Assembly: GCA_035504595.1 (NCBI GenBank)
Contig: DATJRQ010000004.1
Coordinates: forward strand, 33,613 to 97,612
DNA length: 64,000 nt
Source: Thermoplasmata archaeon
GTDB lineage: Archaea > Thermoplasmatota > Thermoplasmata > Lutacidiplasmatales > UBA184
Direction: 5' to 3'
Every line of letters begins with the position of its first letter. Within the stretch, counting starts at the first letter, position 1. This document shows positions 9,710 to 45,667 of this stretch, piece after piece. Made by a program: the position numbers and the translations under genes. The notes below the pieces were generated by a model. That model made no database searches. It saw only the letters and a program-made list of their open reading frames with translations, and was not told where the DNA came from.

Positions 9710-9818
9710 TGGGGCTGCCCGAATTTGAATCGGGGTCCCGGGCTCCCAAAGCCCGAAGGATGGACCAGTAGAGCGGACGGAGGGGCGTACCTCGCGCCCG
9801 TAGCTACCCCACAGCCCC
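9710..9818 (-). tRNA. tRNA-Pro (anticodon UGG) with a ~34-nt intron inside the D-loop
   Basis: Minus strand reads GGGGCTG TG GGGT [45 nt] TCCT T CGGGC TTTGGGA GCCCG GGAC CCCGA TTCAAAT TCGGG CAGCCCC A. It has a perfect 7-bp acceptor stem, a perfect anticodon stem and T arm, and discriminator A. Total length is 109 nt. Confidence 0.75.
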
Positions 9819-20037: not shown

Positions 20038-20988
20038 TCAACTCTCCTCGACCACGACCCGCCGGACGTCGCTCACGCGGACGAGGAGGACGGGGCTCTG
20101 GCCGAGCTCCTCCTGCGTCAGGTCGACCGACCGCTCGCGCGCCAGGAACAGCGCGGCGAGGAAGATCGCGACCAGCCGGTCGCGGCCGGAGAGCGGGTTC
20201 CACAGGTCGAGGAGGGGGAACGCCTCGCCGATCGGGTGGCGGAGCGCCGCCTCCCACGTATCGGCGAGGTCGTGCTCGGGCAGGTCGCCGTGCACGAGCA
20301 CCTCGGGGGGAGCGCGTTGCTCCTCTCGGAGCCGCTCGCGCAGCTCCTGGACGTGCACGGCGCGGCGGGCGTCCGCTTCGGCCTCGCCGAAGGCGCGGAC
20401 GAGCTCGAGGAGCGATACCGGCCGGGTCTCGGGGTGACGGACCATCTCGAGGAGCGGAGGCGCGTCGGCGGAGCCAAGAACGGCGGACGTAACGTCGACC
20501 GCCTCGGGCGTCTCCATCAGCGGAAGGTACGAATCGTCGATCGGGCTCGCGACGGCGTCGTCCGGTCCCGGTGCCGGGGCGTCCCGGGCCTTGAGCACCG
20601 CCTCGGACTGCAGGTAGAGGATGCTCCATGCCATGTACACCAGGCGGCCGGCGATCGCGAAGTTGACGGCGCCGTCCTCCTGGACGCGCTCGAGGTAGGA
20701 CTGGGTGAACTTGACCAGGTCGATCTCCCACGGGTCGAACTCCTCTTCCATGACGAGCTCGAAGAGGAGCGCCATCGCCTTCTGGAACGGGTCGGGGATG
20801 ACGAGGTGAACCCCTTCCTTGAGGTTCTCGACAAGCGTCAGATACCGCTCGAGCAGCGCGGAGGTGTCCTCGGACTCGCCGAGCAGCGACCGGTGGAACA
20901 CGAGGTAGCGGAGCACCTTTTCGGCCGCCTCGCGCGGGACCGCGTTCGGGGCGGCGAGGTCGGTCGCCTCGGCCTCGGAGATCGTCAC
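20038..20988 (-). CDS. scpA: segregation and condensation protein A (kleisin)
   Basis: Contains FDPWEIDLVKFTQSYLERV...NFAIAGRLVYMAWSIL. GTG start overlapping the smc stop (GTGA). Confidence 0.8.
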   Translation of the reverse strand: MTISEAEATDLAAPNAVPREAAEKVLRYLVFHRSLLGESEDTSALLERYLTLVENLKEGVHLVIPDPFQKAMALLFELVMEEEFDPWEIDLVKFTQSYLERVQEDGAVNFAIAGRLVYMAWSILYLQSEAVLKARDAPAPGPDDAVASPIDDSYLPLMETPEAVDVTSAVLGSADAPPLLEMVRHPETRPVSLLELVRAFGEAEADARRAVHVQELRERLREEQRAPPEVLVHGDLPEHDLADTWEAALRHPIGEAFPLLDLWNPLSGRDRLVAIFLAALFLARERSVDLTQEELGQSPVLLVRVSDVRRVVVEES

Positions 20989-43078: not shown

Positions 43079-44407
43079 GTGGACGCGCCAGTGCCGGAGC
43101 CGACGAATTCGTACGGTCGGCTGTTCCGCAACCGGAACTTTCTCCGAGTGTTCTCGGCCGGGCTCGGGTCGGTCGCCGGTTCTTCGATCGCCGGCGTCTG
43201 TCTCGTCTGGATCGTCGCGATCGACACGGGCTCGGCGCTCGACGTAGCGTTCCTCGCCGCCGCGAATCTGGTCGCGGCGATCGTCTTCAGTACGCTCGGA
43301 GGTACTTTCGTCGATCGGTACGACCGGCGCCGGTTGATGATCCTCTCCGATGTCGTCCGAGCGGCCACGCTCGGGATCGTGGTGGTCGACCTCGCGCGCT
43401 TCGGACTGAACCTCCCCCTGCTGCTCGGTGCGAACGCGATCATCGGCGCGTTCACGGTCGTGTTCAACCCCGCGGAGCAGGCGATCGTGCCGTCGCTCGT
43501 GCCGCCGGCGGACGTGGCCGATGCGAACGGCCTGGTCCGGTCCAGCCGGTCGAGCCTCCAGTTCGTCGGGGTCGCGGTCGGCGGGATCCTGATCGTGACG
43601 GTGGGACCGGTGTGGGGGGTGGGCGTCAACGCGCTCACCTTCGCGCTCTCCGCCGCCCTGCTGACCGGGTTGCGAGTGCGCTCGCACCTTCCGGACTCGG
43701 GACCGAGCTCGGCGGCGCGGCCCGGCTACTGGTCCGATATGCGGCGCGGATTCGAGTGGCTGTGGCAGGCACAGGGATTTTTCCAGCTGACGATGTCGGC
43801 GATGTTCTTCAACTTCTCCTCGACCCTGATCGGTACGTTCCTCGTGTTCTACGCCACCCTGGTGCTCCACGGGTCCGCGGCCGTCTTCGCGGCGTTGCTG
43901 GCCGCCGAGGTTGCCGGCACGGCCATCGGGGCGCTCCTGGTCGGCCGCGTCGGAGCGGTCCGGTACGCGGGCAAGGCGTGGGTGGTTCCGTATGGGGTCG
44001 TTTCGGGGGCGGTGGCGCTCCTTCTGCCGCTCGTCGTGTACGCACCGGTGGACATCGCCGCGCTCTTCGTCCTCGGCGTCCTGGGAGGATTCGCCGGCAC
44101 CGCATGGCTCACCGCCGCGCAGCTCCTCGTGCCAACGGAGATGCAGGGCCGCTACTTTGGGATCGACTCGCTCGGCAGTGTCGCGATCCTCCCCGCGGCC
44201 CAGATCGGCGGCGCGCTCCTCATCGACGCCGTCGCGACGCGCGAGACGTATCTGATCGCGGCGGTCCTGTGGATGGTCGCGGGAGTCGCGTTCCTCTTCG
44301 CTCCCGCGATGTGGCGGCTGGGGGTGCCGCCCTCGGACCCTAGTTCCCGTACCGGCGCCGACGCAGCTGGAACGCCCGGATCGCTCGAAGGAACTCGACC
44401 CGGGTGA
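43079..44407 (+). CDS. MFS transporter
   Basis: 442 aa with ~12 TM helices. The N-terminus NRNFLRVFSAGLGS and the loop motif GGTFVDRYDRRRLM match the family. GTG start 23 nt after ATTGATATCA. Confidence 0.8.
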   Translation: MDAPVPEPTNSYGRLFRNRNFLRVFSAGLGSVAGSSIAGVCLVWIVAIDTGSALDVAFLAAANLVAAIVFSTLGGTFVDRYDRRRLMILSDVVRAATLGIVVVDLARFGLNLPLLLGANAIIGAFTVVFNPAEQAIVPSLVPPADVADANGLVRSSRSSLQFVGVAVGGILIVTVGPVWGVGVNALTFALSAALLTGLRVRSHLPDSGPSSAARPGYWSDMRRGFEWLWQAQGFFQLTMSAMFFNFSSTLIGTFLVFYATLVLHGSAAVFAALLAAEVAGTAIGALLVGRVGAVRYAGKAWVVPYGVVSGAVALLLPLVVYAPVDIAALFVLGVLGGFAGTAWLTAAQLLVPTEMQGRYFGIDSLGSVAILPAAQIGGALLIDAVATRETYLIAAVLWMVAGVAFLFAPAMWRLGVPPSDPSSRTGADAAGTPGSLEGTRPG

Positions 44408-45155: not shown

Positions 45156-45232
45156 GATGGAGAGAGGGCGCGCTCGGGATAAGTCGTGGGGGGGTGGCCG
45201 CCGCGGGAAGCGGCCACACCGAGGTCGGGAGG

Positions 45233-45338
45233 CGCCCTGGTCGGGAGTTCCGGGCGAAGGGGTCGGGCCCCTCCGCGCCTTCGAACCCGAGTCGCAGGCT
45301 CGACAGACCTACATCCTAGACCGCTAGACTACCAGGGC
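45233..45338 (-). tRNA. tRNA-Asp (anticodon GUC) with a ~33-nt intron inside the T-loop
   Basis: Minus strand reads GCCCTGG TA GTCT AGCGGTCTA GGAT G TAGGT CTGTCGA GCCTG CGAC TCGGG [40 nt] CCCGA CCAGGGC G. It has a perfect 7-bp acceptor stem, a perfect 5-bp T stem and discriminator G. Total length is 106 nt. Confidence 0.75.
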
Positions 45339-45514
45339 AACCCCGCGGGGCTAACCGTTCTCTGCTATGAACCTTGCCGGACCGGTTCGCGCGCCGGCGC
45401 GCCCGCGCCGGCACGCGCGCGTTCGACCGGTGCAGCGCGAACCCCTCGTGCGAGTGGAAGCCGCGATTTATCTAGAACCGGAGCAGACCAGAGGTCCGCG
45501 AATCGGGTGCGAAC

Positions 45515-45667
45515 ATGACGGCGGCAATGAGTTGGTTCGTAACGGTGTTGGCGGCGCTCGCCCTCGTGCTGGTCCTGAACCAGATGGGGCTCGACGTGAT
45601 GGCGACGATCGGGTCGGCCCTCCATGGGGCGATCCACTTCCTCAGTCAACCGCTCGACGCGCTGTAG
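45515..45667 (+). CDS. candidate small membrane protein (50 aa)
   Basis: ATG-initiated MTAAMSWFVTVLAALALVLVLNQMGLDVMATIGSALHGAIHFLSQPLDAL*. About 90 percent of third positions are G/C. A TTTATCTA box lies at 45467-45474. It is below the ORF-track cutoff and overlaps the mtnA 3' end by 26 nt. Confidence 0.4.
   Translation: MTAAMSWFVTVLAALALVLVLNQMGLDVMATIGSALHGAIHFLSQPLDAL

Follow-up and report, generated by a model that had tools for sequence, protein, structure and literature searches.

The DNA analysed here is a stretch of 64,000 nucleotides (the window), which is archaeal and has a GC content of ~69%. A tRNA-Asp(GUC) gene on its minus strand is flanked by genes encoding a thermosome, an archaeal UPP synthase, an MTNA/IF-2B-like protein and a phosphofructokinase (PFK). 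The nearest relatives of the UPP synthase come from MAGs annotated as 'Thermoplasmata archaeon', and an identical UPP synthase is encoded on ENA metagenome contigs of 58 and 131 kb. The lineage is uncultured and found in peat and acid-soil metagenomes, and one relative bears the isolate name AcS1-45 (locus L013). The order Lutacidiplasmatales/TMEG has been described as having ~69% GC and ~2.1 Mb (PMC9287336), and judged by GC content, habitat and this name the lineage probably belongs to it.

Several smaller features were seen around the tRNA gene. The UPP synthase gene (minus strand) and the gene for an MFS transporter (plus strand) are convergent and overlap by 68 nt (44340..44407), and the same overlap is present in loci L001-L006. 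The element ACTTATCC (45177..45184, minus strand; CTTAATCC in L003) precedes the start codon of the UPP synthase gene (45155) by about 25 nt and suggests a separate TATA box and a leaderless UPP synthase mRNA. Between the tRNA-Asp gene and the IF-2B-like gene there is a hydrophobic ORF of 50 amino acids (MTAAMSWFVTVLAALALVLVLNQMGLDVMATIGSALHGAIHFLSQPLDAL; 45515..45667, plus strand) that overlaps the 3′ end of the IF-2B-like gene on the opposite strand, and a gene of 49-50 amino acids without a Pfam match occupies its place in L001-L004 and L208-L210. Elsewhere in the window, Rfam gave a sub-threshold match to the archaeal box C/D sRNA sR55 at 20758..20824 (plus strand), with 22 bits against a gathering score of 35 (E = 0.5).

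The complete pre-tRNA-Asp(GUC) is 106 nt long (45233..45338, minus strand), with G1 at 45338 and the discriminator G73 at 45233. An earlier note on this DNA had placed a tRNA-Asp here, and reading the minus strand from 45338 to 45233 showed that its coordinates and every element that it listed are correct. The acceptor stem GCCCTGG/CCAGGGC forms all seven pairs, the D arm is GTCT-AGCGGTCTA-GGAT in DNA (GUCU-AGCGGUCUA-GGAU in RNA letters), the anticodon arm is TAGGT-CTGTCGA-GCCTG with the anticodon GTC (Asp) at 45304..45302 on the minus strand, as read from the sequence and by ARAGORN, and the variable region has 4 nt. No CCA is encoded at the 3′ end in the sequence read directly from 45338 to 45233. 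The T stem TCGGG/CCCGA encloses 40 nt instead of the standard 7. On the minus strand, the gene would be divided into a 5′ exon (45280..45338; tRNA positions 1-59) that ends in ...UCGGG-UUCGAA and is invariant or nearly so in 47 aligned relatives, a putative 33-nt intron between tRNA positions 59 and 60 (GGCGCGGAGGGGCCCGACCCCUUCGCCCGGAAC; 45247..45279), and a 3′ exon (45233..45246) that comprises U60, the T-stem strand CCCGA, the acceptor strand CCAGGGC and the discriminator G, as given by the sequence, the alignment and ARAGORN. When the intron (45279..45247) is removed, a 73-nt tRNA is left, with the T-loop UUCGAAU and a flawless cloverleaf according to ARAGORN.

Upstream of the gene, TTCATA (45366..45371, minus strand) lies at -33..-28 from the tRNA 5′ end with AAGG just before it. 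This element is conserved, and exact TTCATA was found at -32..-35 in 69 of the 104 distinct upstream regions of tRNA-Asp. From its position and conservation, AAGG-TTCATA is likely an archaeal TATA/BRE promoter element. None of the relatives has a T-run terminator behind tRNA-Asp; in 102 of 103 cases, the longest run of T in the 40 nt that follow is 1-3.

The gene order M24 peptidase, PFK, IF-2B, tRNA-Asp, UPP synthase, MFS transporter, thermosome is kept in relatives. The 16 syntenic relatives, in which the UPP synthase is 65-93% identical, all have a tRNA-Asp gene that is split by an insert at this position. Synteny was lost in relatives with a UPP synthase of ≤55% identity and in two at 65-70%. 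A metagenome scan with the 5′-exon pattern alone yielded 120 loci. The intron was present in all 116 high-GC loci, and the four intronless copies were all on contigs of 31-43% GC; these low-GC copies belong to other organisms. Pooling the syntenic relatives with the metagenome loci that carry the 5′-exon pattern gave 127 complete genes; an insert (28-34 nt, mode 33) is present in 125 of them and absent from two, and the distinct insert sequences (28-34 nt) number 108. Given the 16 syntenic relatives and the 116 high-GC loci, chance is excluded as the source of the split gene. The two complete intronless genes lie on 43%-GC contigs from other metagenomes (L088, 4783..4855, plus strand, pattern start 4815; L112, 4683..4755, plus strand, pattern start 4715), and their acceptor stem, anticodon arm and T arm are the same as those of the intron-bearing gene. 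They are a view of the uninterrupted gene, from a low-GC relative or another archaeon.

The insert was scanned for a bulge-helix-bulge (BHB) with a 4-bp helix, a 3-nt bulge on each strand and cuts after the second bulge base. Exactly one solution has the T stem as the outer helix, with exon 1 ending at A59 (45280) and exon 2 starting at U60 (45246), so the junction is compatible with a BHB, incompatibility being what the earlier note had named as evidence against an intron. In this solution (all on the minus strand), T-loop positions U54-U55-C56-G57 (45282..45285) form the exon strand of the central helix and pair with CGGA at intron positions -6..-3 (45249..45252), giving UUCG/CGGA with four of four pairs. 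By the same geometry, the 5′ bulge is A58-A59-G(i1) (45279..45281) with a predicted cut between 45280 and 45279, and the 3′ bulge is A-C-U60 (45246..45248) with a predicted cut between 45247 and 45246. The outer helix h is the 5-bp T stem, which is invariant. The inner helix h′ (45253..45278), which is borne out by covariation, consists of the pair G(i2):C(i27) (45278 with 45253), an unpaired C (45277) and a 9-bp hairpin, GCGGAGGGG/CCCCUUCGC (45276..45254), with the loop CCCGA. The insert thus has two 3-nt bulges on opposite strands around a 4-bp helix together with both h and h′, its excision restores a standard tRNA, and the structure is kept while the intron interior varies, as in a complete hBHBh′ motif. 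Relaxed forms (HBh′, hBH/BHL), in which a bulge or a flanking helix is missing and which require an (αβ)2 or ε2 EndA of broad specificity, do not describe it. The earlier note had described half of a BHB, with TTC/GAA and GGCG/CGCC helices around a GAA bulge; that register is not conserved in the relatives and was rejected, and the complete 3-4-3 motif lies in another one, with UUCG/CGGA as its helix and AAG and ACU as its bulges.

The variants show which parts of this structure are kept. In 106 of the 108 variants, C-G-R-R occupies intron positions -6..-3 and pairs with UUCG, and the pairing holds in 100% of the cells of alignment A2, a gapless alignment of 47 distinct precursors with a 33-nt intron. 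The bases opposite U54 and U55 vary between A and G only, and G57 always faces a C, irrespective of the base with which the intron begins, which favours the BHB register over a competing G(i1):C(-6) pair. The 5′ bulge reads AAG in 82 variants, AAC in 22, AAU in three and AAA in one. The 3′ bulge is ACU in 98 of the 108; departures from ACU affect its intron bases only, U60 being kept. Support for the central helix comes from conservation and from the R/R variation opposite the two U's, and it has no true double compensatory changes because its exon strand cannot vary.

These data also bear on the position of the junction, which the earlier note had considered ambiguous between 58/59 and 59/60. 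An intron with its junction at 58/59 would leave the T-loop as UUCGACU; either excision takes out 33 nt, and ARAGORN accepts both products as tRNA-Asp. For a 58/59 junction, the central helix would be G53-C56 against CCGG, which starts with a G:G clash, and no BHB solution exists. Moreover, the last intron base varies (C, U, G or A), A59 and U60 are fixed across the variants, and only 59/60 gives an invariant UUCGAAU. We therefore consider a 58/59 junction very unlikely, and the ambiguity is settled in favour of 59/60, the only position that both fits the BHB geometry and keeps the mature loop invariant.

Covariation was assessed in alignment A2. In the predicted structure 97.9% of the cells pair, and when the partner is slid by 1-3 columns this falls to 30-60%. 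Double substitutions were found in nine pairs, eight of them in the intron hairpin (8 of its 10 pairs), and none of 500 shuffles matched the observed scores. Compensatory changes also occur in the other intron length classes, and in the 29- and 30-nt classes the first inner pair changes from G:C to C:G. Across the 47 aligned sequences the exons are almost invariant and the intron interiors diverge freely, as one would expect if a gene under selection carries an intron that is spliced out. Within the tRNA itself, positions 26 and 44 (window 45312 and 45294; alignment A2 columns 27 and 45) read G...C in 41 sequences and C...G in six, and judged from the alignment this switch is a compensated change within the mature tRNA body.

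Folding predictions differ with the length of the intron. In the 29- and 30-nt classes, the complete hBHBh′ is predicted unaided both by single-sequence minimum free energy (MFE) folding and by RNAalifold. In the 33-nt class, which includes the copy in the window, folding replaces the central helix by G(i1):C(-6) and an open 6x6 loop, so the BHB is not the predicted ground state in that class. MFE folding of the whole precursor fails to give even the cloverleaf, and thus its free-energy gap to the BHB model (median 7.5 kcal/mol) carries little information. In 72 of the 108 variants, just one G:C pair of the inner helix borders the 5′ bulge before an unpaired base or a mismatch interrupts it, which makes the 5′ site less regular than the textbook motif; h′ is continuous for 9-11 bp in 14 variants. 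Given this irregular inner helix in most variants, the 5′ site of the tRNA-Asp intron might be mildly relaxed.

Other kinds of insert were considered. Neither box C (RUGAUGA) nor box D (CUGA) was found within the 33-nt intron, and the interior sequence is not conserved. The catalytic core of a group I intron comprises more than 200 nt with helices P1-P9; the insert has 28-34 nt, and Rfam gave no intron match. If the 33 nt were instead kept in the mature tRNA, they would form an enlarged T-loop or an extra arm. Splicing is a prediction and the insert can form a stable hairpin, both of which are in keeping with retention. T-loop positions U54-G57 make the elbow contacts with the D-loop in the established tRNA structure, and a retained insert would tie up precisely these bases, which a working T-loop requires. 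In addition, the conserved features are those of an endonuclease substrate (the 3-4-3 motif and the splice-site bulges), the remainder drifts in sequence and in length (28-34 nt), and we know of no tRNA with a 40-nt T-loop. Retention is thus improbable to a high degree.

It is scarcely plausible that the locus is a decayed tRNA pseudogene or an insertion scar, with the functional tRNA-Asp elsewhere in the genome. The portion of the genome examined is 64 kb, and a second gene is possible. Against this, the exons are essentially invariant in more than 100 distinct copies, the hairpin pairs change by compensatory substitution, the promoter-like upstream element is conserved, and the 5′-exon scan returned no intronless copy from any high-GC contig.

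Standard gene finders do not describe the locus correctly. In the window, ARAGORN calls a 75-nt tRNA-Asp at 45265..45339, whose acceptor stem contains mismatches and whose T-loop has 8 nt, and it makes no tRNA-Asp call in L002-L007. The Rfam tRNA model finds nothing in the window at its gathering score and gives a partial match of 19 bits, below gathering, at the tRNA-Asp site. Both were rejected as guides to the gene, the one giving a wrong 3′ end or no call and the other no call. That the 75-nt model is itself a real, intronless tRNA has next to no chance of being right: it is the sole standard-tool call at the site, but its acceptor stem has the mismatches c-c and g-a, its 8-nt loop is closed by a T stem with a mismatch and a wobble, its 3′ end falls within the freely varying part of the insert, and ARAGORN makes no call at all in L002-L007. 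The comparative data refute this model, which is an artefact. The earlier note had expected standard annotation to under-call tRNAs in this genome, and ARAGORN and the Rfam tRNA model bear this out. tRNAscan-SE in archaeal mode probably does not share the problem, since it recovered tRNAs for all 20 amino acids from a genome that probably belongs to the same order (PMC9287336).

The comparative pattern contradicts all four of these alternatives (the 58/59 junction, the retained insert, the pseudogene and the 75-nt model), and jointly they are left with a small share of the probability. Taken together, the structure, the conservation and the covariation bear out the 33-nt T-loop intron at a non-canonical position that the earlier note had proposed, and as far as sequence data can tell, the locus is very probably a functional tRNA-Asp(GUC) gene with an archaeal BHB intron between T-loop positions 59 and 60.

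The mechanism would most likely be ordinary archaeal tRNA splicing, with nothing new in the biology of BHB splicing, and the order of its steps is inferred from established archaeal BHB introns. In the precursor, U54-G57 would pair with CGGA as the central helix, the T stem would serve as the outer helix and the intron hairpin as the inner helix. By analogy, the splicing endonuclease EndA would cut after the second base of each bulge (A58-A59|G and A-C|U60), and an RtcB-type ligase would then join the 2′,3′-cyclic phosphate of A59 to the 5′-OH of U60. The product would be a 73-nt tRNA with the canonical T-loop UUCGAAU, to which CCA would be added after ligation, as none is encoded. Modification of the T-loop may occur only after splicing, because U54-G57 would be base-paired until the intron leaves.

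The geometry is identical to that of the canonical anticodon-loop intron at 37/38 (hBHBh′, 3-4-3). At both sites, six bases of a 7-nt loop precede the intron, intron positions -6..-3 are paired with loop bases 1-4, the stem that closes the loop acts as the outer helix, and the two 3-nt bulges are each cut behind their second base; the 37/38 intron masks the anticodon, whereas the tRNA-Asp intron masks U54-G57 of the T-loop. The Haloferax tRNA-Trp intron, which carries a box C/D guide RNA, is likewise removed through a BHB, but it has ~100 nt with C/D boxes and the intron described here has 33 nt without such boxes.

Position 59/60 is among the documented non-canonical intron positions (PMC4090602). 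In ARMAN-2, introns at 59/60 occur in pre-tRNA-Cys(GCA) and pre-tRNA-Pro(GGG) (PMC3239211), and they share with the tRNA-Asp intron the site, the T stem as outer helix and the splice-site logic. The EndA of ARMAN-2 cleaves a 59/60 intron in vitro (PMC3239211). The ARMAN-2 tRNA-Pro intron at this site is a strict hBHBh′ like that of tRNA-Asp here, whereas the tRNA-Cys intron has 13 nt and is a relaxed hBH (PMC3239211), the tRNA-Asp intron being longer and having both bulges. Thus the type of intron is already known, and what is unusual is its Thermoplasmata host: known 59/60 introns are hosted by DPANN or Thermoproteales, whereas the present one is in a tRNA-Asp of a high-GC member of the Thermoplasmata and is fixed clade-wide. 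No other tRNA with a 59/60 intron was found in 865 kb of high-GC DNA of the lineage, in which the tRNAs found were two intronless tRNA-Ile genes and the tRNA-Pro of the window. With regard to the idea that the intron shields an integration site, viral contigs gave no match to the spliced or unspliced 3′ part of tRNA-Asp.

The second tRNA gene of the window, tRNA-Pro(UGG) (9818..9710, minus strand), has an insert of 34-35 nt in its D-loop and was missed by both ARAGORN and Rfam. Five distinct relatives (L211-L216) keep the insert, and its hairpin shows compensatory changes among them. It is best read with a clean 5′ bulge C16-U17|A and a 3′ bulge A-C|U around a central helix of G12-G15 against CUCU with a fixed U-C mismatch; the outer helix is absent, and the junction candidates are 17/17a and 16/17. 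The T stem of this tRNA ends with A53:U61 and not with a G:C pair. On its sequence, the D-loop intron looks like a relaxed HBh′-like motif. Its closest parallel is the D-loop intron of Methanopyrus kandleri pre-tRNA-Glu(UUC), a relaxed HBh′ at 20b/21 and a rare non-canonical case in the Euryarchaeota (PMC5829648), which its own enzyme cuts poorly in vitro, whereas the tRNA-Asp intron has both bulges. The statement of the earlier note that both tRNA genes in the window carry non-canonical introns stands for tRNA-Asp with its intron at 59/60, and the conserved D-loop insert of tRNA-Pro is a putative second case.

The two introns differ in what they imply about the endonuclease. Strict enzymes cut motifs in which the two bulges and the two flanking helices are all present. 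The tRNA-Asp intron has all of these, so it does not by itself imply an endonuclease of broad specificity, which the earlier note had concluded from the introns of both tRNA genes. If the reading of tRNA-Pro is right, the enzyme of the lineage must handle a relaxed site, and it is the tRNA-Pro intron that might imply a broad specificity. Searches by tblastn with EndA of M. jannaschii and A. fulgidus found no match in the window or in the fetched loci, and a database search with the catalytic repeat of A. fulgidus EndA returned 48 short proteins, none of them from this lineage. The Euryarchaeota are described as having few introns, all at the canonical position, and strict α4 or α′2 endonucleases (PMC4090602). 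'Cluster II' Euryarchaeota encode exclusively α′2 EndA, and the EndA of Thermoplasmatales was grouped with that of α′2-type orders (PMC5829648).

These results extend introns at position 59/60 to the Thermoplasmata, where reviews give the Euryarchaeota canonical positions and strict endonucleases only. They also resolve the tRNA-Asp of a lineage that would otherwise seem to lack a proper one, the common finders mis-calling or missing it. The more than 100 natural variants amount to a mutational map of a T-loop BHB, in which CGRR, the AC|U bulge and the first inner G:C pair are kept and the rest is changeable. We propose, tentatively and with doubt outweighing confidence, that this soil and peat order of Thermoplasmata is a euryarchaeal lineage that routinely keeps non-canonical tRNA introns, of the full BHB type at 59/60 in tRNA-Asp and of a relaxed HBh′ type in tRNA-Pro. 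Reviews allot this class the homodimeric α′2 endonuclease alone and regard it as strict. If the proposal is true and the lineage has an α′2 enzyme, the accepted view that intron diversity is linked to endonuclease architecture would have a counter-example here; if the enzyme is not α′2, an unrecognised endonuclease variant would be present. With its tRNA-Asp and tRNA-Pro introns, an abundant soil archaeon offers a direct test of the proposed co-evolution between intron position and the type of endonuclease.
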